A DNA stretch of 24,000 nt from Acholeplasmataceae bacterium (GCA_963675245.1 OY775910.1:752801-776800), one strand, 5' to 3'. Counted from the first letter of the stretch, positions 3,398-24,000 are shown. The notes: generated by a model not told the origin, from the sequence alone. Translations and numbers: made by a program.

Positions 3398-3916
3398 ATG
3401 AACAGAAGAGAACAGACAAAGAAAATGGTGTTACTTGCTAATTTTCTAGCGATAGCCATTGTCTTAAACATTGTTGAATCGATGATTTCTATCATCCCCG
3501 TACCTGGTGCTAAAATAGGATTCGCTAATATTGTTACGTTGATTATTATCTATATATATGGGTACAAAGAAGCGACGACAGTAACCATACTTAGAATTTT
3601 ATTGGTGGCGTTGCTAAGCGGAAGACTCTTTGGTCCTACTTTTTGGTTAGGATTATCTGGATCAATATTATCCTTATCAGTGATGATTGTTATTCATAAA
3701 TTTAAATTATTCGGGACAGTTGGCGTGAGTGTTTTGGGTTCGTTTTTCCACAGTATAGGACAGATTATCGCAGGTATATTTGTGCTTGGTAGTGTCGCGG
3801 TTTTAACGTATTTACCCATCATGTTATTGATTAGTATACCGGCAGGTATTCTAACTGGGATGATCGCGGCTAAATTTGTCTCAGTTTGGACAGCAACACA
3901 CAACGAAAAAACCTAA
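3398..3916 (+). CDS. Gx transporter family membrane protein (formerly annotated 'heptaprenyl diphosphate synthase component I')
   Basis: 172 aa, about 5 TM helices. LANFLAIAIVLNIVESMISIIPVPGAKIGFANIVTLIIIYIYG matches the family's N-terminal signature (lal.l..iE..ip.PiPG.KlGlaNivtl..l). Typical partner gene of NusG_II proteins. Confidence 0.75.
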   Translation: MNRREQTKKMVLLANFLAIAIVLNIVESMISIIPVPGAKIGFANIVTLIIIYIYGYKEATTVTILRILLVALLSGRLFGPTFWLGLSGSILSLSVMIVIHKFKLFGTVGVSVLGSFFHSIGQIIAGIFVLGSVAVLTYLPIMLLISIPAGILTGMIAAKFVSVWTATHNEKT

Positions 3917-3940
3917 TTTTTTGAAAGTGGAAACAAATGC

Positions 3941-3969
3941 TTGCACTCGTGTGGGCTTAATGATATAAT
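3941..3969 (+). promoter_or_regulatory. Sigma-70/SigA-type promoter of rpmE
   Basis: TTGCAC (3941-3946), 17 nt spacer, TATAAT (3964-3969) with an extended -10 TG at 3961-3962. Confidence 0.6.
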
Positions 3970-4025
3970 GTATTCGCAAAACTTACTATGGCGGACAAAA
4001 AGCCATGGCGGAAGGAGACCAAACG

Positions 4026-4289
4026 ATGAAAAAAGGAATTCATCCAAATTTCAACGTTATTAAGGTAAAATGCTCAACTTGCGGGTTTGAACATGAAATC
4101 GGAACGACAATTAAAGATTTCAGAATTGATACATGTTCAAATTGCCATCCATTCTATACAGGACAACAAACGTTCGTTCAGGCAGCTGGACGTGTTGAAA
4201 GATTCAACAAGCGTTATGGCATTAACAGCAATCAGCAACAACCACAAAACGAAGAAAATACAGAAGCAGAAGTTAAAGAACAAGAATAA
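4026..4289 (+). CDS. rpmE: 50S ribosomal protein L31 (Zn-ribbon type A) with a Q/E-rich C-terminal extension
   Basis: MKKGIHPNF...CSTCG...CSNCHPFYTGQQ...GRVERFNKRYG is the canonical L31 sequence. GGAAGGAG RBS lies upstream of ATG 4026, so the track's 4005 start was rejected. Confidence 0.92.
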   Translation: MKKGIHPNFNVIKVKCSTCGFEHEIGTTIKDFRIDTCSNCHPFYTGQQTFVQAAGRVERFNKRYGINSNQQQPQNEENTEAEVKEQE

Positions 4290-4312
4290 CGTGATATTAA
4301 TCACGTTTTTTC
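4289..4312 (+). terminator. Rho-independent terminator after rpmE
   Basis: ACGTGAT (4289-4295), ATTA loop, ATCACGT (4300-4306), then TTTTTCTT. Confidence 0.75.
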
Positions 4313-4339
4313 TTAAACAGAGGACAGAGGTGTCAGGGG

Positions 4340-4930
4340 ATGTATCATACATATAACAAAGGGTTTATTGAAGTTGTCTGTGGACCAATGTTTGCAGGTA
4401 AAACAGAAGAGTTGATTAGACGAATCAAAAGACTTGAATATGCGAAACAAAATGTACTCGTCTTTAAACCAGCTGTTGATGTTCGCTATGAAAAAGATGA
4501 AATTGTCTCACATAACCTATCTAAAAAACCATCCATCGTTGTAGGTACAAGTGGAGAAATTATGGATTATGTTCAAGAAGCAACGGACGCTGTTGTGATT
4601 GATGAAGCACAATTTTTTGATCACGGGATTGTTGATGTTGCTGAACATTTAGCAGATCGCGGAATTCGCGTGATTGTAGGCGGTTTAGATACTGACTTTA
4701 GAGGTGAACCATTTGGTGCAATGCCAGACTTGCTTGCTAGAGCTGAGTTTGTTACAAAACTCACTGCGATTTGTGTGAAGAGCGGGTTACCAGCAACAAG
4801 AACACAACGTATCATTAATGGTAGACCAGCGAATTATTCGGATCCTTTAGTGCTGATTGGCGCGACAGAGTCTTATGAACCAAGATCAAGACATTATCAT
4901 GAAGTCCCAGGAAAACCTAAAAAAGATTAA
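4340..4930 (+). CDS. tdk: Thymidine kinase
   Basis: 196 aa. P-loop GPMFAGKTEELIRR and DEAQFF, with a C-terminal Zn-lasso region. Typical type II TK. Confidence 0.92.
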   Translation: MYHTYNKGFIEVVCGPMFAGKTEELIRRIKRLEYAKQNVLVFKPAVDVRYEKDEIVSHNLSKKPSIVVGTSGEIMDYVQEATDAVVIDEAQFFDHGIVDVAEHLADRGIRVIVGGLDTDFRGEPFGAMPDLLARAEFVTKLTAICVKSGLPATRTQRIINGRPANYSDPLVLIGATESYEPRSRHYHEVPGKPKKD

Positions 4931-5366: not shown

Positions 5367-5478
5367 CCCTTTTCGGGCATCATCACTCAATTGTAGCGTG
5401 TGAACCTGGTCAGGCCTTGATCGGAGCAGCCATAAGCACTTCTATGATGTGGGTGATGATGCCCGAGTAGGGCTTTTA
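5365..5478 (+). ncRNA. ffs: Signal recognition particle RNA (small 4.5S/scRNA type)
   Basis: ACCTGGTCAGGCC...GGAGCAGCCATAAGCA matches the conserved SRP domain IV motif (GGUCAGGUCC....GGAAGCAGCCAAGGCA). It is closed by a long helix, GGGCATCATCAC (5375-5386) with GTGATGATGCCC (5453-5464), and an outer pair AGCCC/GGGCT. Ends in a T-run. Position directly after tadA mirrors the tadA-scr arrangement in Bacillus. Ends are approximate. Confidence 0.75.
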
Positions 5479-5570: not shown

Positions 5571-7901
5571 GTGCTTAAGGTGGGGAAAAAGTCTATTTGG
5601 TTAATCTTAATCATGATGTTTTTTTTAGTATCTTGCCAAAGTCAAATTTCTAGCATAGAAGATATCGATAACTATATTGAAAATTTTATGTCTCACAGTA
5701 ATCAATTTAATATTGATACAACAATTGATGCATCTATTACTGCTAACGGTGTTGAAACATCACTTACTGAAGAGATTGAAATGTTTATTCAAATAGAGCC
5801 ATACTACCTTACATATGTGGACGAAGGTATGACATATATAGAGTATATGGAAGACGACTTAATAAAAACAGCTTCGTATGATGAAATGTCACAAGTTGAA
5901 GGAAAATTTCTATATACATATTTAGAATATTTGCCTGATAATTATACAACATACGATATTGAATTAGATTTAAAAGACAATCATTATGATATAAAAAAGA
6001 CAAGACAGGGTTCATATGTCATAGAGGCTAACGTTAGAGATTTACTTTCAGAAAATGATTATGAATTAATTAATGCAATGATGGGCTCATTTCATTCAAC
6101 AGATGATTTTATAGAAGATGCTACTGCTAAAGCAGAGATTTTTTTATCAAGAAAAGAAATACGTTATATTGTGACAGTAAATATCGATATTGATGATTAT
6201 GATATTGCAGTGGAAGTTACAATGGACTTAAAAATTAGGTATGCATCATTTACAACAGTCGATGTTAGTGATACAACATTGTTTTTCCCTATCTCTTCTG
6301 GTGAAGGATCAGCTGTCATTGATGTTCACGAACATATATTATATCCTGCTCATCGAACAGGAGCAGTTAGTTACGATATTTATTTAGAGCCAGGTAAGTA
6401 TGTGTTTGATATCTTAGAAGAAGATTTTTCTGGAAGAAGAGTTCATGTTAATATCTATGACAAAAATACACTTGAAAGTGTATTAACTTTCGCAGACGTA
6501 TATAGTCCTACATACGATTTATATGAATCATCTATTAACACCTATTTCAATATCAATGAGGTGGGATATTACGAAATATTCATTGAGTATCCAGAATCAA
6601 ACATACCCGTAATTAGTCAACTTAAGGAGTATGAATATGATACAGATGGCACGATAAATCATGACTTAGTGGTTACTGAAAGTGGTACATATTACTACAA
6701 CATTGAAGGCCCATATGATTTCTTTTCTATCTATATTGACATACCTGGTTATACATATGTAGATATCACAAATTCAAACGGAAATAAGATGTATTTTACA
6801 GAATATGGCGAAGAAGAAATATATCATACATATAGTTTACACAATACACTTTCATATTTAAATCATGATCCACACAATATTTATATATTTGGTGACAACG
6901 CAATCAGTGGGACAGTTACTATTGAGTTAGAGCATTTAGATACAGCGGGTGAAATAGATTTTGACACAATGCCCGACATGCTAACAACGTTTGACATATA
7001 TTTACACACACAAAGTGACTTTATAGATCAATATTTAAAAGTTGAAATCATATCTCAAGGGTTTTATGAATTCTACTATGATATTATTGAAGGCTATCCA
7101 TTGATAAAAGATGCCCTGTATACTCAAAATGGAGAATTAGTAACAAACATCAATGAAGGCGAGATTGTACCACTAAGTATAGGAACATATTATTATTTAG
7201 TTTTGGGTGATAATTATGATGGTTACTACGGCATACGATATGATATGACATCAAAACATATTATCTCAAACGATTTGACAACACTTAATTCAATTGAAAC
7301 ACTTATAGGTAATTTAAATGACCTAAACTTAATTTGGGATTCAATAACAAGTAAAGATGACTATATTGTTTACAATTTTACATTGACAGAAGAAACAGAC
7401 GTTGTTATATCAAATGAAAGTGAATATCAATTGTATGCTGCTAGTGGAGAGAAGATTAGTTTAAATTTATATGATGCCACGTCGTATGGTGTTTACAGAT
7501 TAGATGCTGGAGACTACTTTGTTGGGGTGACGTTACCAAAAACATTTAATACAGATAATCTACCTTATGAGTATCATTTACTGCTTGGAGAATTAAATGT
7601 TCCTGGTTCTGAAAATGATACTTCAGTTTATCCATACTTTGAAATTTTAGAACCAAGAACCTGGGGAAATTCAATGCCAGATTATCTGGGAGATATTGAT
7701 GGTTATAAAATTATAGTTGACAAAGAAACAACATATGCTTTTACAGCTTATGAGTGGACAACAATTTTCAAAGGCAAACAACTGATTGCCACATTTTACA
7801 ACAGTGATACAATAACATTAGAACCTGGGATTTATTATGTCATTGGTGCGAGAAACCCAGAATATAATCCTTGGCACTTATACTATGATATTGTGGCGTA
7901 A
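5571..7901 (+). CDS. Large surface lipoprotein with repeated beta-sandwich-like modules, unknown function
   Basis: 776 aa. Signal peptide plus lipobox FFLVSC. Rich in Y/D/E/I/N. At least 8 recurrences of a strand motif h-x-x-G-x-Y-[YF]-h. The GTG start at 5571 is uncertain, since GTG 5580 is in frame. Confidence 0.75.
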   Translation: MLKVGKKSIWLILIMMFFLVSCQSQISSIEDIDNYIENFMSHSNQFNIDTTIDASITANGVETSLTEEIEMFIQIEPYYLTYVDEGMTYIEYMEDDLIKTASYDEMSQVEGKFLYTYLEYLPDNYTTYDIELDLKDNHYDIKKTRQGSYVIEANVRDLLSENDYELINAMMGSFHSTDDFIEDATAKAEIFLSRKEIRYIVTVNIDIDDYDIAVEVTMDLKIRYASFTTVDVSDTTLFFPISSGEGSAVIDVHEHILYPAHRTGAVSYDIYLEPGKYVFDILEEDFSGRRVHVNIYDKNTLESVLTFADVYSPTYDLYESSINTYFNINEVGYYEIFIEYPESNIPVISQLKEYEYDTDGTINHDLVVTESGTYYYNIEGPYDFFSIYIDIPGYTYVDITNSNGNKMYFTEYGEEEIYHTYSLHNTLSYLNHDPHNIYIFGDNAISGTVTIELEHLDTAGEIDFDTMPDMLTTFDIYLHTQSDFIDQYLKVEIISQGFYEFYYDIIEGYPLIKDALYTQNGELVTNINEGEIVPLSIGTYYYLVLGDNYDGYYGIRYDMTSKHIISNDLTTLNSIETLIGNLNDLNLIWDSITSKDDYIVYNFTLTEETDVVISNESEYQLYAASGEKISLNLYDATSYGVYRLDAGDYFVGVTLPKTFNTDNLPYEYHLLLGELNVPGSENDTSVYPYFEILEPRTWGNSMPDYLGDIDGYKIIVDKETTYAFTAYEWTTIFKGKQLIATFYNSDTITLEPGIYYVIGARNPEYNPWHLYYDIVA

Positions 7902-8050: not shown

Positions 8051-8719
8051 ATGAGATTAAACCCTAAAGTATTTAAGGCACTTACAGGCGATCCTTTCGC
8101 TGTGCAAGAGATTGATGGCCAAAGAGTGGAATTCCATTATATGGACGATACACCATATCTCGAACAATATACGGCACGTGGTCGTTTCGCGATTTGGACA
8201 TCAGACGGTAAAGGAAATTATAAAGTTCTTATTCAAAGTCAATATTATGAAGCATTGAAACCATTTTATGAACAAGGTGTTAATAAAATTTGGTTAGGTT
8301 TTTTATCAAAAGTTGGCACGATGAGCAGAAAAGTAAACATGTTATTCTTAATTCCAACAATGGTTGTTTACGCGATTGCAGTTGTGTTGTTCTCAATTTT
8401 CTGGGAAGAACAAATTATGATCTTATTGATTGTCATGCTCGCAAGCGTTATTGTTACTAACATGTTTCAAAGCAGATATGTTAACAAGAAAGTAAAAGAA
8501 GAAAACAACAACACACAAGAAGCAATTAAAGCATATGTGGGAGAAGAAGAATTCTCAGCATTAGTTAAAAACCAAGAAACATTCTTTGCTGAATATTTTA
8601 AGACCGAAGAAGTTCAGCCTGAAACACCTGCTGAAAGTGAAGAACAAGAAGTGATTGAAGCAGACATAGAACCATCTGAAACAAATAGTAATGAAGAGGA
8701 CGATTCAAATGACAAATAA
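8051..8719 (+). CDS. Membrane protein of unknown function (soluble N-domain, 2 TM helices, acidic C-terminal tail)
   Basis: 222 aa. GGAGG RBS at 8039-8043. TM segments LFLIPTMVVYAIAVVLFSIF and IMILLIVMLASVIVTNMF. E/D-rich tail. No family recognised. Confidence 0.65.
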   Translation: MRLNPKVFKALTGDPFAVQEIDGQRVEFHYMDDTPYLEQYTARGRFAIWTSDGKGNYKVLIQSQYYEALKPFYEQGVNKIWLGFLSKVGTMSRKVNMLFLIPTMVVYAIAVVLFSIFWEEQIMILLIVMLASVIVTNMFQSRYVNKKVKEENNNTQEAIKAYVGEEEFSALVKNQETFFAEYFKTEEVQPETPAESEEQEVIEADIEPSETNSNEEDDSNDK

Positions 8720-10672: not shown

Positions 10673-12535
10673 ATGATTTACGATGGTATCATCGTTGGCG
10701 CTGGTCACGCAGGTGTAGAAGCTGCACTTGCCATGGCACGCATGAATAAGCATACAATACTCATTACAGGCAACCTGAACAAGGTTGCTTCTTTGCCTTG
10801 TAACCCCTCTATTGGTGGTCCTGCTAAAGGGATTGTTGTAAGAGAAATTGACGCACTCGGTGGCCAAATGGCTAAAAGTGCGGATCAAGGGCAAATTCAA
10901 ATCAAGATGTTAAATGCATCTAAAGGACCTGCTGTAAGAGCGTTACGCGCACAAATTGATAAATTAATGTATCCAAAAATTATGTTAGATGTGTTAAAAA
11001 ATACTGAAAACCTGACCCTATTAGAAGAACTCGTTGACCAAATGATCGTTGAAGATAATCGTGTCACCGGTGTTATATTAAAGAATGGTGAAAAGGTTTA
11101 TGGAAAAACAGTTATTCTAACGACAGGTACATATCTTGCAAGTAATATTTTAATTGGTAAAGAAAAGACAACCAGTGGGCCACATGGTGAACCGACGACA
11201 TTTGGTATATCTGGTCAATTAAAAGAATTGGGATTTGAAGTAGTTCGTTTAAAGACGGGCACACCACAACGCATCGCGATTGATTCGATCGATCCATCAA
11301 AAATGGTCGTTCAACCTGGCGATGAGATGGCATGGACATTCAGCTATGATAATCATTATCAGGATGAAAACCCGCAAAAGGTTTGTTATTTAACACACAC
11401 CACACCAGAAACACACGAGATCATTAATGAACACTTAACTGAATCTGCGATGTATGGTGGTATTGTTGAAGGTGTTGGACCAAGATATTGTCCATCCATT
11501 GAAGATAAAGTGGTTCGCTTTTCTGATAAGAACAGACACCAAATCTTTATTGAACCGGAAAGTTTATCTTTAGATGAATTATATGTTCAAGGTTTTTCAA
11601 CAAGTCTTCCAAGAGATGTTCAAGAAGAAATGATTAGAACTATCCCTGGATTAGAAAACGTTAAGATTATAAGGTACGCGTACGCGATAGAGTATGACGC
11701 AATTAATCCTATTCAATTAAACGCGACGTTAGAAACAAAACGTATTGAAAACTTATTTTGTGCGGGACAAATCAATGGCACAAGTGGTTATGAAGAAGCA
11801 GCTGGTCAAGGTTTAATGGCAGGTATTAATGCTGCGTTAAAGTTAGACCATAAAGAGCCACTTGTCTTAGAAAGACATGAAGCGTATATTGGTGTTTTAA
11901 TTGATGACCTAGTTACTAAAGGAACAGTAGAACCATATCGCTTGTTTACATCACGTGCTGAACATCGTCTTTTATTAAGACATGATAATGCAGATATCAG
12001 ACTTCGCGATTATGGCTATCAAATCGGTTTAGTGGATGAACAGACCTATCAATCGTATCTCGCTAAAAAAGACGCAATAAGTGCTTTATATGAAGACGTA
12101 AATACGTATCGCGTGTTGCCAACGGATGATAACAATCATTATTTAACATCTCGTGGCTCTGCGAAGATATTTGAAGCGATGACGATTGCTGATTTACTTA
12201 AGCGACCTGAGTTTAATCGTCAAGATATTGTTCACTTTCTGGGTGATCGATATGAAGAGGATATTTTAGAACAAGTTGAAATTGATATTAAATATGATGG
12301 TTATATCAAGAAGGCACTAAGAGAAGCTGAACGTATGACACGTTTGGAACATAAACTAATACCTGCTGATATTGATTATCATGATATTAACAATCTTTCC
12401 TCTGAGAGCCGTGAAAAATTATTAAAGATTAACCCTAGAACCATTGGTCAGGCATCACGAATATCAGGTGTTAATCCTGCAGATATATCGGTGTTAGTTG
12501 TTTATATTGAAGCGGGGATGAGAAAACGTGTTTAA
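10673..12535 (+). CDS. mnmG: tRNA uridine 5-carboxymethylaminomethyl modification enzyme MnmG (GidA)
   Basis: 620 aa. N-terminal FAD fold [17 protein letters not shown], plus [11 protein letters not shown] and [26 protein letters not shown]. Confidence 0.95.
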
Positions 12536-13546: not shown

Positions 13547-13630
13547 GGAGGGGTAGCGAAGTGGCTAAACGCGGCAGACTGTAAATCTGTTCCCTAGGGT
13601 TCGGCAGTTCGAATCTGCCCCCCTCCACCA
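13547..13630 (+). tRNA. trnY: tRNA-Tyr (GTA), long variable arm
   Basis: 84 nt. Acceptor GGAGGGG/CCCCTCC, anticodon loop CTGTAAA, T-arm GGCAG-TTCGAAT-CTGCC, encoded CCA. Confidence 0.93.
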
Positions 13631-19857: not shown

Positions 19858-19933
19858 GGCTCTGTAGCTCAGTCGGTAGAGCAAAGGACTGAAAATCCTT
19901 GTGTCGGCAGTTCAATTCTGCCCGGAGCCACCA
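19858..19933 (+). tRNA. trnF: tRNA-Phe (GAA). Intact gene and anchor of the cassette array
   Basis: 76 nt. Acceptor GGCTCTG/CGGAGCC, anticodon arm AAGGA-CTGAAAA-TCCTT, T-arm GGCAG-TTCAATT-CTGCC, CCA encoded. Confidence 0.95.
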
Positions 19934-19947
19934 TGGAGACCTTAAAT

Positions 19948-19974
19948 AAGCCATTTATAGTGGCTTTTTCTTTT
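19948..19974 (+). terminator. Rho-independent terminator after tRNA-Phe (prototype of the repeated terminator)
   Basis: AAGCCA, 7-nt loop, TGGCTT, then TTTCTTTT. Confidence 0.8.
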
Positions 19975-20009
19975 ATAAAACGCTTAAAAGTCAATCATTT
20001 GATTATATA

Positions 20010-20039
20010 TTGTCTAGATTAATTAAACAATGGTATAAT
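20010..20039 (+). promoter_or_regulatory. Cassette 1 promoter
   Basis: TTGTCT (20010-20015), 18 nt spacer, TGgTATAAT (TATAAT 20034-20039). The -10 starts 60 nt after the terminator T-run. Confidence 0.6.
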
Positions 20040-20064
20040 AAAAGAAAATTGTTGGTGGGGATTT

Positions 20065-20616
20065 ATGAAAAAAATTCTAATAGTTTTATTGTTTATTTTT
20101 TTGCTAACTGGTTGTGCTAAACAACGAACGGAAAATATTGTTGAAGATTTAAATGAGAGCAGTAATTTTGAATATGGCTTATTAATAGAAGTCACTAGTG
20201 ATATTAAAACTCATTTCAATATTAGTCCCGGTTTTGGAGTATATACACTTTTTGATTCATCCATTGAAATAGATATTCAGCAGGAAAGCATTCTAAGTTA
20301 TATAGATGAATATGAAACAACCACATATGATGTAACAGCATATCCAGATTATTCTGATGGTGGAGAATATATTACAATGATTTGGACGACCGATCCAGAT
20401 GTTCATATTTATGACTTATCTGTAGGTGATTCATATACTGAAGAGGAACTAAGTGAATATATGTTATCTTTAGGATTCACTCGAACAAACGATTCAGAAA
20501 ATATATTTATGTATAATAAAGAGCGATTAAATATTTCGATCTTCGTTGAGAGTAACATCATCACGAAGATGTATGTAAGAGTAGATATTACTAATAGATG
20601 GAATATTCAGTATTAA
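20065..20616 (+). CDS. Cassette 1: small lipoprotein, unknown function
   Basis: 183 aa. MKKILIVLLFIFLLTGC lipobox. GGTGGGG RBS. Acidic, Y/D/E-rich mature part. Confidence 0.75.
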   Translation: MKKILIVLLFIFLLTGCAKQRTENIVEDLNESSNFEYGLLIEVTSDIKTHFNISPGFGVYTLFDSSIEIDIQQESILSYIDEYETTTYDVTAYPDYSDGGEYITMIWTTDPDVHIYDLSVGDSYTEEELSEYMLSLGFTRTNDSENIFMYNKERLNISIFVESNIITKMYVRVDITNRWNIQY

Positions 20617-20645
20617 TTAATAGAATGAATTAGTAAAAGTTGCTT

Positions 20646-20738
20646 GAAACGACTGAAAATCCTTGTGTCGGCAGTTCAATTCTGCCCGGAGCCACCATGG
20701 AGACCTTAAATAAGCCATTGATAGTGGCTTTTTCTTTT
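20646..20738 (+). repeat. R1: GAAAC plus tRNA-Phe positions 30-76 plus terminator copy (att-like, no 5' half)
   Basis: 20651-20697 is identical to tRNA-Phe 19887-19933. The trailer and terminator are identical except for one loop base (T to G). Confidence 0.95.
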
Positions 20739-20774
20739 GTATATGGGGAAGCTTGTCCTTGTATTAACCAAGTA

Positions 20775-20803
20775 TTGTCCTCATTTGAAACTAATGCTAT
20801 AAT
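20775..20803 (+). promoter_or_regulatory. Cassette 2 promoter
   Basis: TTGTCC (20775-20780), 17 nt spacer, TGcTATAAT (TATAAT 20798-20803). The -10 starts 60 nt after the T-run. Confidence 0.6.
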
Positions 20804-20833
20804 TAAATTAATTAACACATGGGGGTAGAATTG

Positions 20834-21310
20834 ATGAAAAAAATAATTTTAATTTTTTTTGCAACATTCGTAGTTTTATTTATGTCAGCATGTAAACCAT
20901 ATACATATAACGGAAAAGAAATCGAGTCATTAAAATTCGTTGATATTGATTATTTTGGAGACTATAGACATGAATCAATCATTGATCTACAAAATGGAGA
21001 AGTACTCCACAGACAGTACTCGCCTGAAATCCCAACCCCAGATTATGAAATAGATTTTACATTTGATACTTCCGAAGTTGATTCTTTTTTGGATGAGTTT
21101 GGTTCATCAGGCATATTCAATTTAAAAGAAGAATATCATACAATCTATCATGTTGATGATGGTGGCGGATGGATATTTACAATTTATTATTCAGATGGAA
21201 CCGAAAAAACATCTACAGGAGATAATTATTGGTTAACGAAAGTTTTTGAAAAAGCAGGAACAGCGACTATCAATTTATACGGAGATAATTTATTTGATCC
21301 AGTACACTAG
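20834..21310 (+). CDS. Cassette 2: small lipoprotein, unknown function
   Basis: MKKIILIFFATFVVLFMSAC lipobox. Start moved to ATG 20834, downstream of GGGGG. Confidence 0.7.
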   Translation: MKKIILIFFATFVVLFMSACKPYTYNGKEIESLKFVDIDYFGDYRHESIIDLQNGEVLHRQYSPEIPTPDYEIDFTFDTSEVDSFLDEFGSSGIFNLKEEYHTIYHVDDGGGWIFTIYYSDGTEKTSTGDNYWLTKVFEKAGTATINLYGDNLFDPVH

Positions 21311-21332
21311 TCGATATATAGTTTGGCAGTAT

Positions 21333-21426
21333 GAAACGACTGAAAATTCTTGTGTCAGCGGTTCAATTCTGCCCGGAGCCACCATGGAGACCTTAAATAA
21401 GCCATTTATGATGGCTATTTCTTATT
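21333..21426 (+). repeat. R2: degenerate tRNA-Phe 3'-half plus terminator copy
   Basis: Three substitutions in the tRNA part (C40T, G49A, A52G), which breaks one T-stem pair. The terminator is re-registered as AGCCAT/ATGGCT. Confidence 0.95.
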
Positions 21427-21431
21427 GAAGA

Positions 21432-21440
21432 TGATATAAT
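21432..21440 (+). promoter_or_regulatory. Cassette 3 extended -10 promoter
   Basis: TGaTATAAT only 9 nt after the T-run, about 51 bp shorter than in the other cassettes. No -35 element. Confidence 0.45.
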
Positions 21441-21468
21441 CAAAATATGATTTCAGGGGGTTACACTT

Positions 21469-22011
21469 ATGAAGAAGACTATTATATTTTTCATGATGAT
21501 ATTAATTTGTGTATTACTTTATTCTTGTAATGGATATAATAATTTAATGTATGATCACTTGAGTGATTTGAATAATTATATATCAGTTACGGGAACGATA
21601 GAAAATATAGTATTTTTTGATGCAGATTGGAATGAATTGAATTGGGATTTATCTGATGATGATATTCCGGATTTATATGAACACTTATGCATATATATCA
21701 AGTTTTACTCTGAAGATGACTATCTGCAATTCACAGGAACATCAAATATTCCCGAAAATTTTGAGTATCAGTCAGTATCTATAATGTTTGATATGATTAA
21801 AACAAATATTGAAATATTAAACGAGAATAGCTTTTTTAAAGAATCGATGATTGATGAAGAAGTTTCAATAGTTACTTCAAATTGGATATATATGGATACA
21901 AATTTTTTTCAAATAGTTGGGCTGAGCTTTGAGGAGATTTCCTACCTTGATCCAGAAGAAGGGTTAAATAATTATAGTACTTATATGGAAGACAATAGTT
22001 CATTGTTTTAG
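21469..22011 (+). CDS. Cassette 3: probable small lipoprotein, unknown function
   Basis: 180 aa. MKKTIIFFMMILICVLLYSC, with an atypical Y at lipobox position -2. CAGGGGG RBS. Confidence 0.65.
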   Translation: MKKTIIFFMMILICVLLYSCNGYNNLMYDHLSDLNNYISVTGTIENIVFFDADWNELNWDLSDDDIPDLYEHLCIYIKFYSEDDYLQFTGTSNIPENFEYQSVSIMFDMIKTNIEILNENSFFKESMIDEEVSIVTSNWIYMDTNFFQIVGLSFEEISYLDPEEGLNNYSTYMEDNSSLF

Positions 22012-22026
22012 AAAGAAAGGGTACGT

Positions 22027-22119
22027 GTAACGACTGAAAATCCTTGTGTCGGCAGTTCAATTCTGCCCTGAGCAACCACGGAGACCTTAAATAAGCCATT
22101 TGTGATGGCTTATTCTTTT
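22027..22119 (+). repeat. R3: degenerate tRNA-Phe 3'-half plus terminator copy
   Basis: GTAAC replaces GAAAC. Substitutions G67T and C72A, and a trailer T to C change (CCACGG) shared with R4. Confidence 0.95.
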
Positions 22120-22154
22120 GTAAATTCAGTAAAAGTCCTTTTGCTTACTACGTT

Positions 22155-22184
22155 TTGTCGAAAACTAAATAGTAATGATATAAT
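22155..22184 (+). promoter_or_regulatory. Cassette 4 promoter
   Basis: TTGTCG (22155-22160), 18 nt spacer, TGaTATAAT (TATAAT 22179-22184). The -10 starts 60 nt after the T-run. Confidence 0.6.
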
Positions 22185-22208
22185 TAAAGAAAACTTTTTG
22201 GGGATCAC

Positions 22209-22712
22209 ATGAAAATAGAATATTTTATGATTGAACTTAAAGACATTTTAAAATCCTATTACTGTATATGGTATTTTTCTGAAAATAGCGAAAAGGATTT
22301 TTTAGTTAAAAGCAACAATAAGATTGCCGTATTTGATTATATTGAATCTGTAATTTTATATGCAAGTGTGAATAATATTGGATTATTGGATGAAAAACAG
22401 CATGCAATATACGATTTAAATTATATTCAAGATTTAGTTAATGGAAAAACATCTCACATTGATTGTAGCGATATACTTGATTTTTGGAATATAGTTGATG
22501 CAATATGTAATACACTGAATATTGTTTTCATTGGATTGGAACATAGATTTGATAAACTGTATGATAAATTATTCAGAGGATGTAATACAATATTAAATAA
22601 AGAAATATACACACCTCAATGGAGTAAAAGCGAAATTAATCAGATAAAAAAGTTATTGACAGAATTCCTATTGATTATTAGCAATGTGTTAAAAGGTGCA
22701 CGAAACGACTGA
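22209..22712 (+). CDS. Cassette 4: cytoplasmic protein, unknown function
   Basis: 167 aa with no signal peptide. GGGG RBS. The ORF reads into repeat R4 and stops at the TGA of GACTGAAA. Confidence 0.6.
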   Translation: MKIEYFMIELKDILKSYYCIWYFSENSEKDFLVKSNNKIAVFDYIESVILYASVNNIGLLDEKQHAIYDLNYIQDLVNGKTSHIDCSDILDFWNIVDAICNTLNIVFIGLEHRFDKLYDKLFRGCNTILNKEIYTPQWSKSEINQIKKLLTEFLLIISNVLKGARND

Positions 22713-22794
22713 AATTCCTTGTGTCGGCAGTTCAATTCTGCCCGGAGCAACCACGGAGATCTTAAATAAGCCATTGATAGTGGCTTTTTCTTTT
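22702..22794 (+). repeat. R4: tRNA-Phe 3'-half plus terminator copy
   Basis: Substitutions A38T and C72A in the tRNA part, and trailer changes CCACGG and GAGATC. The terminator stem matches the prototype and the loop matches R1. Confidence 0.95.
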
Positions 22795-22829
22795 GGAGAA
22801 TCATCAATAATCCCTTTGTCAACAATGCC

Positions 22830-22858
22830 TTGTCTAATTTTCATGAATAATATATAAT
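22830..22858 (+). promoter_or_regulatory. Cassette 5 promoter
   Basis: TTGTCT (22830-22835), 17 nt spacer, TATAAT (22853-22858). The -10 starts 59 nt after the T-run. Confidence 0.6.
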
Positions 22859-22882
22859 TAAATAAAAAAGTGGGGAGTATAT

Positions 22883-23188
22883 ATGACACCAGAGATGGAA
22901 AAACTTTACAACAGTCTTAGTACGGTTAAAGTTAAAAATGTTGCACAAGCATATGATTATTTAGGTAACGAAGTAAATGGGCTTGATATGGATCATAAAT
23001 TGTCGTTTGAGATGACTCTAGAAGCTTTAAAGAACGTCAATAAAGATTATAAATTATTAAAAAAATATTATAAAGGTAAAATCGATACTAATCTTGAAAG
23101 TGTTTATACTAAGTATCCAGAAGATTCAGAAGAATATTTCTTTTTAAAGTGCTTAATTAGATTGACTGAATATAATGTCACGAGATAG
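22883..23188 (+). CDS. Cassette 5: small cytoplasmic protein, unknown function
   Basis: 101 aa. GTGGGGAG RBS. Helical, K/E/Y-rich composition. No family recognised. Confidence 0.6.
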   Translation: MTPEMEKLYNSLSTVKVKNVAQAYDYLGNEVNGLDMDHKLSFEMTLEALKNVNKDYKLLKKYYKGKIDTNLESVYTKYPEDSEEYFFLKCLIRLTEYNVTR

Positions 23189-23208
23189 AGGGTTTGACAT
23201 TTGTGTAT

Positions 23209-23231
23209 GAAACGACTGAAAATCTTTATAT
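23209..23231 (+). repeat. R5: core-only copy (pseudo anticodon arm, 20/23 match)
   Basis: GAAACGACTGAAAATCTTTATAT versus consensus GAAACGACTGAAAATCCTTGTGT. No T-arm or terminator follows. Confidence 0.85.
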
Positions 23232-23255
23232 TTACTCGTAAAAGGGGAAGTTAAA

Positions 23256-23570
23256 ATGATATTGTCTGAAAAAACAGATTTAAGTTTCTTTCACGACTCA
23301 AGAGTTGGTGAGATTAATTATAATTATGCGAGCAAATCTTTAATTTTTCACTTGTGTTTAGATAGTTCATCATCAATTAGAAGAGAAGTTGAACTCAAAG
23401 CTAACATTGTTTTTTCTGTAGAATTAAATTCGATAGAGCCTTGGGGACCAGGAATATACATAAATGAGGTCACATTAGAAGATAAAATAGAATTTAAAAG
23501 GCTATCAATAATAATAAATTCAGGAGATATATTTGTTATTGATGCAAATTTATTTGAAATAATTATTTAA
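23256..23570 (+). CDS. Cassette 6: small acidic cytoplasmic protein, immunity-protein-like
   Basis: 104 aa. AAAGGGGAAG RBS. The pattern FHDSRVGEINYNYASKSLIFHL...F..VEL.SIEPWG resembles small immunity proteins of polymorphic-toxin loci. This is similarity by recall only. Confidence 0.55.
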   Translation: MILSEKTDLSFFHDSRVGEINYNYASKSLIFHLCLDSSSSIRREVELKANIVFSVELNSIEPWGPGIYINEVTLEDKIEFKRLSIIINSGDIFVIDANLFEIII

Positions 23571-23577
23571 CATGCAT

Positions 23578-23600
23578 GAAACGACTGAAAATCCTTGTGT
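23578..23600 (+). repeat. R6: core-only copy (23/23 match to consensus)
   Basis: GAAACGACTGAAAATCCTTGTGT, followed directly by TATAAT and unrelated sequence. Confidence 0.9.
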
Positions 23601-23606
23601 TATAAT
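23598..23606 (+). promoter_or_regulatory. Cassette 7 extended -10 promoter formed at the core junction
   Basis: The last bases of the core (TGT) plus TATAAT (23601-23606) give TGtTATAAT. Confidence 0.4.
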
Positions 23607-23655
23607 TATATAATTTAATAACAGGAACAAAAAACTAAGTAAGGAAGAAAATGTC

Positions 23656-24000
23656 ATGAAAACATTAAAGGATATTGAAATTAAGGATTTCAATGAAAGT
23701 AATCTCATTAGATTTAAAAATATAAATATTGATGAAGATACCGAAGTTTACAATGTCACCATGCATGTTTTTGTTAAGAATAATTTTCTACAATGCATAT
23801 CAGAATCATTGACTTTTCATTCTAAAGAACTGTTAACATTTTTTGATAACTGCAAAGACATTTATGATAAATTGACCGGAAACACAACTATTGAATCGAT
23901 AGAAAACAAAAAATGTATATTGACATTGAAAGCAATAAGCAAAGGATATATTGAAATATCTGGAACAATAGAGCAATTAATTGGTTCAAACAAGTGCGAA
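23656..24000 (+). CDS. Cassette 7: cytoplasmic protein, unknown function (3' end beyond window)
   Basis: Not in the supplied ORF track because no stop is reached. ATG 23656 follows AAGGAAG, and the frame stays open for 115 codons to the window edge (MKTLKDIEIKDFNESNLIRFKNINIDEDTEVYNVTMHVF...). Confidence 0.6.
   Translation, partial: MKTLKDIEIKDFNESNLIRFKNINIDEDTEVYNVTMHVFVKNNFLQCISESLTFHSKELLTFFDNCKDIYDKLTGNTTIESIENKKCILTLKAISKGYIEISGTIEQLIGSNKCE

Follow-up and report, generated by a model that had tools for sequence, protein, structure and literature searches.

A candidate gene cassette array anchored at the anticodon loop of tRNA-Phe in Acholeplasmataceae and related wall-less Bacillota

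This work describes an array of gene-sized cassettes that follows the tRNA-Phe gene of an Acholeplasmataceae bacterium (GCA_963675245.1, OY775910.1:752801-776800; the whole stretch of 24,000 nucleotides that was analyzed is referred to here as the window). We conclude, with a probability of roughly 0.7, that the region from the tRNA-Phe gene to the end of the window is a cassette array of the chromosome that site-specific recombination at the anticodon loop of tRNA-Phe has built and reshuffled. Direct support comes from the anatomy of the array, the conservation of its recombination site, the shuffling of whole units with breakpoints inside that site, and the association of an integrase with the site in related genomes. 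The array is real and widespread, and it is apparently undescribed: full-text literature searches returned no earlier description of such a system.

A wider reading, which we hold at slightly better than even odds, is that these arrays represent a second, independently evolved gene-capture system of the integron type in wall-less Bacillota (Acholeplasmatales, Izemoplasmatales, and relatives), in which a Xer-like recombinase would act in trans on 28-bp duplex sites. In such a system, the recombinase would reside on a tiny rolling-circle mini-element, the anticodon loop of tRNA-Phe would be the insertion point, and hundreds of single-gene cassettes, many with their own promoter, terminator, and replacement tRNA half, would be excised, inserted, and reordered.

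Results

Anatomy of the array in the window

The original prediction, made without database searches, placed an intact tRNA-Phe(GAA) gene at 19858-19933 and co-oriented partial copies of it downstream, an arrangement on which ARAGORN, Rfam, and a repeat search agree. The repeat search gave a 28-nt family with seven members in direct orientation, namely the tRNA-Phe gene and six copies carrying tRNA-Phe sequence from the anticodon stem onward, and the predicted periods of 764, 687, 694, 675, 507, and 369 bp were reproduced exactly. A degenerate 21-mer (AACGACTGAAAWTYYTTRTRT) has six exact matches in the window plus the tRNA gene at one mismatch, where shuffled sequences lead one to expect 0.00. 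As had been proposed, copies 1 to 4 are of the full type, retaining the T-arm, CCA, and terminator hairpin, while copies 5 and 6 keep only the first ~25 nt, and none of the six is recognized as a tRNA by ARAGORN or Rfam. The tRNA gene and the sites are laid out as follows.

19858..19933, + strand: intact tRNA-Phe(GAA), head of the array (ARAGORN; Rfam tRNA, 71.9 bits)
19889..19898, + strand: anticodon loop CTGAAAA plus TCC, putative strand-exchange zone, placed in the window from breakpoints in related arrays
20641..20669, + strand: site 1, full type, T-GCTTGAAAC-GACTGAAAATCC-TTGTGTC; tRNA 3' half and terminator run to 20738
21328..21356, + strand: site 2, full type; 3' half and terminator to 21426
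22022..22050, + strand: site 3, full type, with degenerate left arm ACGTGTAAC; extends to 22119
22697..22725, + strand: site 4, full type; extends to 22794
23204..23232, + strand: site 5, short type, core only, without T-arm or terminator
23573..23601, + strand: site 6, short type, perfect match to the family consensus GCATGAAACGACTGAAAATCC

An equivalent of the putative strand-exchange zone is present in every site. To its left, the copies depart from tRNA sequence: the left flanks of copies 1 to 6 read, in order, GCTTGAAAC, GTATGAAAC, ACGTGTAAC, GCACGAAAC, GTATGAAAC, and GCATGAAAC, and the tRNA-Phe gene has GAGCAAAG at this place. The original prediction was right to call this flank non-tRNA and element-type; the motif that it gave, GYAT-GAAAC, was only close, the consensus over 254 sites being T-GCATGAAAC.

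Between the sites lie seven cassettes. As predicted, every interval holds one sizeable + strand open reading frame (ORF), and the seven ORFs are mutually unrelated (best pairwise E = 0.09).

19896..20659, + strand: cassette 0, 764 bp, left arm GCTTGAAAC; tRNA 3' half, terminator 19948-19974, promoter-like sequence 20010-20039, lipoprotein ORF 20065-20616 (183 aa)
20660..21346, + strand: cassette 1, 687 bp; partial tRNA, terminator, promoter-like sequence 20775-20803, lipoprotein ORF 20834-21310 (158 aa)
21347..22040, + strand: cassette 2, 694 bp; lipoprotein-like ORF 21469-22011 (180 aa)
22041..22715, + strand: cassette 3, 675 bp; promoter-like sequence 22155-22184, ORF 22209-22712 (167 aa)
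22716..23222, + strand: cassette 4, 507 bp; promoter-like sequence 22830-22858, ORF 22883-23188 (101 aa)
23223..23591, + strand: cassette 5, 369 bp; ORF 23256-23570 (104 aa), no promoter or terminator of its own
23592..24000, + strand: cassette 6, running beyond the window end; ORF 23656->24000 (>115 aa)

The array thus extends past the window end at 24000. Three of the ORFs encode lipoproteins, and searches of all seven against Pfam and NCBIfam gave lipoprotein signal peptides and sub-threshold matches only, with no curated family; the ORF of cassette 6, for instance, shows a weak similarity to WapI immunity proteins (E = 0.014, below cutoff). Exact-match look-ups of three cassette proteins gave no hit. 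Homologues of the window proteins nevertheless occur in arrays of other genomes: the cassette 0 protein has a 77%-identical homologue in an internal cassette of loci L025, L078, L106, and L128, the cassette 3 protein a 35%-identical one in L095/L096, and the cassette 6 protein a 46%-identical one in L117.

Units 0 to 4 share a stretch of ~175 nt at 67-77% identity. Within it, a promoter-like sequence of the form TTGTCN-17/18-(TG)TATAAT follows the terminator at 20010, 20775, 22155, and 22830, and the array contains 5 terminator-like sites where 1.4 are expected. Judged by consensus matches, 4 of the 7 units have their own promoter-like site and 5 of the 7 an upstream terminator. A full-type junction would accordingly be predicted to supply a terminator to the upstream gene and a promoter to the downstream gene, insulating each. 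Cassette 5 is probably co-transcribed with cassette 4, and cassettes 5 and 6, which have no terminator between them and lack the terminator/promoter supply of the full type, are probably co-transcribed as well. The ORF of cassette 3 ends at a TGA within site 4 (22697-22715). Across many loci, cassette ORFs frequently extend into the site, where the TGA of GACTGAAAA ends them; ORFs that start inside a site begin with MHETTENP, an artifact of the conserved site sequence.

Upstream of the array, the window carries housekeeping genes (Rnf, ApbE, L31, thymidine kinase, deaminase, transketolase, MnmG, and RsmG), then a 16S-23S-5S operon and 11 tRNA genes, the last of which is tRNA-Phe(GAA). The G+C content is 29.2% in the array versus 36.0% in the upstream core genes. 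A lone tRNA-Tyr gene (13547-13630) lies just 5' of the 16S rRNA gene, outside the main tRNA cluster, and two + strand ORFs at 5571-7901 and 8051-8719 (776 and 222 aa) between the SRP RNA (5374-5468) and transketolase genes gave no Pfam match at E<1e-5.

A conserved site with a tRNA-derived and an element-specific part

A logo of 254 unique sites reads T(-1), GCATGAAAC, GACTGAAAATCC, (A/T)TGTGTC, with a sharp left boundary at T(-1) and only AT-rich noise outside the site. In full, the site comprises ~28 bp, T-GCATGAAAC-GA-CTGAAAA-TCC-(A/T)TGTGTC, the right two-thirds of which corresponds to tRNA-Phe positions ~30-48. The left arm (consensus TGCATGAAAC) is a non-tRNA sequence of ~10 nt that is invariant across orders and distant lineages, while the DNA adjacent to it is not conserved. 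Core position 21 is A or T and tracks the anticodon stem of the host tRNA-Phe, and the left arm stays constant; the right part is therefore tRNA-derived and the left arm element-specific. A further core variant, GGATTG, occurs in L138. A C at core position 8 disrupts the anticodon stem. Folding of the site gave no structure on either strand (dG 0 to -0.7 kcal/mol, z-score above 0), which argues for a duplex, sequence-defined site, unlike the attC sites of integrons.

Arrays of this site in other genomes

When one genome per species was scanned with the exact pattern, the same junction and left arm turned up in Acholeplasmataceae (OY781159.1, UBA12080), Mariniplasma, Izemoplasmatales, Acholeplasmatales SZUA-569, and Bacillota metagenome-assembled genomes, in agreement with the placement of the window in the Acholeplasmatales. 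Relaxed matching, applied to the loci found, gave 4-8 sites per array. A metagenome scan with the pattern GCATGAAASGACTGAAAATCC matched 103 stretches, one of which (L079) was set aside as a chance match in GC-rich coding DNA. The related loci number 127, mostly from Acholeplasmatales, Izemoplasmatales, and related metagenome-assembled genomes, and in none of them do sites lie outside co-oriented arrays, with one locus per contig; the 1.56-Mb chromosome OY781159.1, for example, has one single site locus. The 221 inter-site spacings have a median of 723 bp, and a single locus contains up to 12 sites.

The start of the array is included in the window and in 14 further loci. In all 15 the array is headed by an intact, co-oriented tRNA-Phe gene, usually the last gene of the same tRNA cluster, and the tRNA 3' portion is repeated directly from the anticodon stem-loop onward. 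Since the sites are clustered, co-oriented, and headed by tRNA-Phe, they are not a dispersed REP- or MITE-like element, and the claim that the repeat belongs to the tRNA locus holds across these genomes. Matches in Mucilaginibacter, Opitutales, Enterococcus, and Vibrio proved to be ordinary partial tRNA-Phe fragments without the TGCATGAAAC arm, or chance. A viral origin was also considered: a search of 2.9 million viral contigs (IMG/VR) gave no true site match, its sole hit being a chance match within a phage ORF, and a second pattern gave none.

Directly 3' of the last site, three loci share a conserved stretch of ~75 nt (…CCCAAAATGTAAACTAGGCATAAATCCATAGTAAAGCACTCTATTTAAGTAGTAAAAACAT; L019 ~2037-2110, L084 ~1200-1275, L105 ~7128-7200), which has no Rfam match and is followed in L084 by core genes. 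It is probably the ancestral chromosomal flank, or else an unknown leader.

Cassettes are shuffled as units with breakpoints in the anticodon loop

Clustering of the 221 inter-site segments resulted in 159 cassette families, 42 of which recur, many of them in different neighborhoods or orders. Cassettes have a median size of 725 bp (range, 236-5275 bp), with intact sites at both ends even in the smallest; most contain one gene and a few contain several, and in 150 of the 159 families the longest ORF is co-oriented with the array. The full type, with T-arm and CCA, accounts for 40 families and the short type, in which ~28 bp are shared, for the other 119. The cargo is mostly unannotated and includes Flg_new surface proteins, Fic, GNAT, HNH, methyltransferases, toxin-antitoxin-like proteins, YcxB, SHOCT, and many lipoproteins. 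No family contains an integrase or a remnant of the replication protein (Rep) described below. Recurrent large ORFs, considered as candidates for a hidden recombinase, turned out to be cargo (Fic, HNH nuclease, ABC transporter, LRR, Flg_new, GGDEF-HD-GYP, and M48 peptidase).

Arrays differ between relatives, as had been anticipated, in that whole cassettes have changed order, been gained, or been lost. Three different contexts were seen for family 0, the order of families is 3 1 8 9 10 4 18 in L025 versus 110 40 1 4 in L094, families 23 and 24 are reversed between L034 and L067, and L111 combines cassettes otherwise seen in L095, L070, L059, and L094. Many recurring cassette pairs with different neighbors are 98-100% identical at the nucleotide level, indicating that the rearrangements are recent.

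In ~20 independent comparisons of identical cassettes in different contexts, the homology breaks off precisely at the site. Polymorphisms associated with the upstream cassette extend to core position 15 (19-20 in one case), and those associated with the downstream cassette start at core positions 12-21. The exchange is therefore placed in CTGAAAATCC, that is, in the anticodon loop and the start of the 3' stem, where the original prediction had put the crossover. Exchange by a tyrosine recombinase whose overlap region spans 6-8 bp would be expected to leave a zone of this kind. In addition, the parental-type sites of one hybrid junction (between families 1 and 4 in L094) are identical over at most 5 uninterrupted bp at the exchange point, which argues against RecA-type recombination.

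A Xer-like integrase on mini-elements at tRNA-Phe

Recombinases were sought with phmmer, using XerD, Cre, and Hin queries, in six-frame translations of all loci. This search retrieved tyrosine recombinases in L081, L099, and L103 (PF00589, E 1e-30 to 1e-34) and a serine recombinase in L120, where a fragment of a large serine recombinase (3-1592, reverse-complement orientation) immediately precedes a cassette array with four sites and represents a second type of recombinase next to an array. The integrase genes of L081 and L099 are on the opposite strand and directly follow tRNA-Phe, ahead of the first site. The mini-element thus delimited ends at a canonical site 2.8-3.3 kb on and also carries a rolling-circle Rep (PF23343) and an XRE regulator. 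The two integrases (~285 aa) are 65% identical to each other, and that of L103, which directly follows the fourth site of its array, is 30% identical to both. The tRNA-Phe of L099 has the same 5' half and T-type stem as that of the window; the integrase therefore circulates among lineages that share the site variant of the window.

At E<1e-20, 261 proteins belong to the integrase family, all annotated simply as "integrase/XerD" and all from assemblies of Tenericutes, Mycoplasmatota, Izimaplasma, or Bacilli. Genomic context was inspected for five homologues. Those at 48-89% identity, including the ones at 63% and 48%, sit directly after tRNA-Phe, and one at 44% identity lies 6.6 kb from a tRNA-Phe gene. 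In the complete genome of Mycoplasmatota bacterium WC30 (CP134495.1; L129), gidA-gidB-parAB and a tRNA cluster ending in tRNA-Phe are followed by an IS200-type gene, the Int-XRE pair, and at least 12 sites (at least 11 cassettes) that run off the retrieved locus. The IS200-type gene, at 11007-11477 between tRNA-Phe and the integrase mini-element, encodes an IS200/IS605-type Y1 transposase. A 98-kb contig has two tandem integrase elements with different Rep families after tRNA-Phe and then at least 8 cassettes, among them a Fic gene and a HepT/MNT pair.

As such, the claim that a recombinase would be found to accompany the array stands for relatives, in which a Xer-like tyrosine integrase occurs in elements bounded by tRNA-Phe and the site (WC30 and other contigs); the window itself has none. 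These Int-Rep-XRE elements are ~3 kb long and contain the integrase in L081, L099, L129, and L130. Across them the integrase and the site are constant and the Rep family varies (PF23343 versus PF02407). The tandem mini-elements of L130 (8453-14037) carry a PF02407 Viral_Rep and a truncated remnant of 111 aa, and the sister contig L132 has an intact PF23343 Rep of 310 aa at the same place (3516-4448), a comparison that points to loss of the Rep with retention of the integrase.

The best models for the integrase are XerA and XerC, both below cutoff, as are XerD and XerS, and the best solved relative is XerA (PDB entry 5hxy). The integron integrase model TIGR02249 gives 85 bits against a cutoff of 265, with a match limited to the C-terminal ~60 aa. 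The protein shows no separate arm-binding domain, which would fit a minimal 28-bp site being enough. With regard to a free form, phage and plasmid relatives of the integrase do not exceed ~30% identity, and the mini-element Rep is only 30-38% identical to Reps of small ssDNA phages. The best plasmid candidate, Acholeplasma hippikon plasmid 2 (NZ_LR215051.1; L141; 9.5 kb), has, at 5583-6440, an integrase gene whose product is 30% identical to the array integrase, with DnaD and HTH genes beside it, but was rejected, as it contains no copy of the site.

Discussion

Proposed mechanism and points that weigh against it

In the model that we propose, a cassette would run from TCC(W)TGTGT through promoter and gene to TGCATGAAACGACTGAAAA, and its circular form, should such circles exist, would contain one complete site. 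The tRNA-Phe gene would act as an attL- or attI-like site, composed of a host left arm, the anticodon loop, and a 3' half contributed by cassette 0. The likely enzyme is the simple (Xer-like) tyrosine recombinase of ~285 aa encoded by the mini-elements; it would catalyze exchange between any two sites, with cleavage predicted at a 6-8-bp stagger across CTGAAAAT. Because full-type units replace the 3' half of the tRNA gene, they could enter that gene itself and leave it intact, and short-type units, with the 28-bp site only, would be restricted to internal sites. On cassettes without an integrase gene, the enzyme probably acts in trans, excising and inserting them as happens with integron cassettes. 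Insertion would take place mainly at the tRNA end, the integrase elements would serve as transient helpers, and the window genome may have access to such an integrase at present.

Several findings weigh against this reading. As originally predicted, there is no recombinase gene in the 24-kb window: the genes upstream are housekeeping genes, and none of the seven units encodes one. Among array heads found by the site alone, only 2 of 15 have an integrase element. The left and right arms of the site, as read from the consensus, form no clear inverted repeat. The evidence for mobility is comparative throughout and includes no circular cassette, empty site, or excision junction. Finally, several sites are degenerate, so that parts of the arrays are fossil. 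Site 3 of the window is one example; another is a decayed site in L025 (GGAAATGGTTGAAAATCTTTTGG, 2205-2235), at the expected end of the homologue of window cassette 0, where two cassettes are fused into one 1.3-kb interval. Sites erode, and cassettes then fuse.

Alternative explanations

Site decay leads to the first alternative, namely that the units are stumps of formerly integrase-bearing elements and that genomes differ through deletion and homologous recombination rather than through mobility. Such accretion has its starting material, in that integrase-bearing elements do integrate at tRNA-Phe, sometimes two in tandem; degenerate sites and fused cassettes occur, and the tycheposon islands discussed below contain remnants and extra partial tRNAs. 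Decaying elements, however, should not have left 159 families of unrelated cargo free of any integrase or Rep remnant, units as short as 236 bp with intact sites at both ends, or a non-tRNA left arm conserved across orders next to DNA that is not conserved. Cassettes of 98-100% identity in new orders and contexts likewise go beyond what deletion alone would yield. We consider this explanation unlikely.

Distinctly improbable, in our estimate, is an exchange of cassettes by homologous recombination, in which the repeats would serve as portable homology arms for RecA-dependent double crossovers after DNA uptake and no dedicated recombinase would be involved. Full-type junctions do share ~90-175 bp, enough for homologous recombination, and most array heads are without an integrase. 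Yet 119 of the 159 cassette 5' ends are of the short type with its ~28 shared bp, breakpoints cluster in a zone of ~10 bp, and the L094 hybrid junction arose from sites with at most 5 bp of uninterrupted identity. Nor does such a process need a 10-nt left arm to be conserved across distant lineages.

That the repeats are retained at the RNA level, as tRNA-like signals for processing or termination between the genes of a multigene region, we find hard to credit. Full-type copies do supply a terminator to the upstream gene, but short-type sites have no T-arm, terminator, or fold, the anticodon stem is broken by the left arm, neither Rfam nor ARAGORN recognizes any copy, and both the shuffling and the linkage to an integrase would be left unexplained. 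A generic REP- or MITE-like repeat resembling tRNA-Phe by chance, as a short conserved sequence abundant in AT-rich genomes might, is already contradicted by exact-pattern scans that find only co-oriented arrays at one locus per contig (as in OY781159.1), by the tRNA-Phe genes at the heads of the arrays, and by the viral contigs without a true match.

Comparison with known systems

Site-specific recombination at tRNA-Phe builds on an established principle, as tyrosine integrases that target tRNA genes, crossover in the anticodon loop, and tandem accretion are all known; what is found here is that principle miniaturized to an integron-like cassette platform. A classification of tRNA integration sites by Williams in 2002 reportedly includes a class with anticodon-loop crossover. 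The work on ICESt1 and ICESt3 is said to have introduced the cis-mobilizable elements (CIMEs) and accretion-mobilization, with CIMEs that are few, kilobases long, and derived from integrative and conjugative elements (ICEs). The structure of the present cassettes would fit that description, in that they are flanked by att-like sites, devoid of recombination genes, and next to an integrase-bearing partner that may be able to mobilize them. Unlike CIMEs, they are gene-sized, and hundreds of different ones are spread over many genomes.

The pdif modules of Acinetobacter plasmids and the IMEX elements are likewise small, lack an integrase, and have at their ends sites of ~28 bp for a Xer-type recombinase. 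The pdif sites alternate in orientation and resemble dif, whereas the sites described here are direct repeats, derive from a tRNA, and are tied to an element-borne recombinase that scores below the XerC, XerD, and XerS cutoffs.

Genomic islands of the Islander type share with the arrays integration into a tRNA gene, anticodon-loop crossover, a replacement 3' half, a displaced 3' fragment at each boundary, and the formation of tandems. Among the 3919 islands of Islander, 125 tandems have two or more members and only 4 have three or more, and an integrase is required in every member (PMC4383910). The present arrays differ in having 7 to >12 units of 0.24-1.5 kb, almost all without an integrase, and in that many units hold only the 28-bp core and cannot restore the tRNA. 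Since island finders such as Islander demand an integrase for each unit, arrays of this kind would be rejected by them and are probably under-reported.

The tycheposons of Prochlorococcus carry integrases, average 1-2 per genome, and are stacked at an "island tRNA" with partial tRNAs between them, older elements being displaced inward and leaving remnants (Hackl et al., bioRxiv 10.1101/2020.12.28.424599). Both systems involve elements with a tRNA-specific tyrosine recombinase, a module for integration plus replication, and cargo, and the Int-Rep-regulator architecture appears analogous. The units of the present arrays differ in being mostly integrase-less single genes, in their precisely conserved site, and in their high density.

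The closest functional parallel lies with integrons, above all sedentary chromosomal integrons and CALINs. The arrays resemble these in their co-oriented, small, mostly single-gene cassettes of unrelated and largely unknown cargo, in the single site between cassettes, in unit-wise reshuffling, in the frequent absence of an adjacent integrase, and in a tyrosine recombinase of the Xer-like "simple" group. They differ in that the array-associated integrase fails IntI models, that the sites are a conserved duplex sequence of ~28 bp and not structure-defined attC hairpins, that the anchor is a tRNA anticodon loop and not attI, that many cassettes carry their own promoter and terminator (as consensus matches) and may not depend on a Pc promoter, and that the integrase is found on its own small Rep-bearing element and not on a fixed platform. 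The integron analogy of the original prediction thus holds for co-oriented, reshuffled, gene-sized cassettes and fails for the two features that define integrons, the IntI integrase and foldable attC sites; "integron-like" is used here as a functional analogy only.

Integrons are, to our knowledge, the one bacterial system firmly established to date in which single genes are stored and reshuffled as cassettes with a site at each boundary, and they are essentially unknown from Firmicutes-derived lineages. If the wider reading is true, cassette-based gene capture evolved more than once and from different parts, here an anchor in a tRNA anticodon loop, a duplex site defined by its sequence, and a helper mini-element with a simple Xer-like integrase. 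Such a system would account for a hypervariable locus in genome-reduced Mycoplasmatota, with its surface lipoproteins, Fic, HNH, GNAT, and immunity-like proteins, and a 28-bp site paired with a recombinase of ~285 aa might provide a compact recombination tool.

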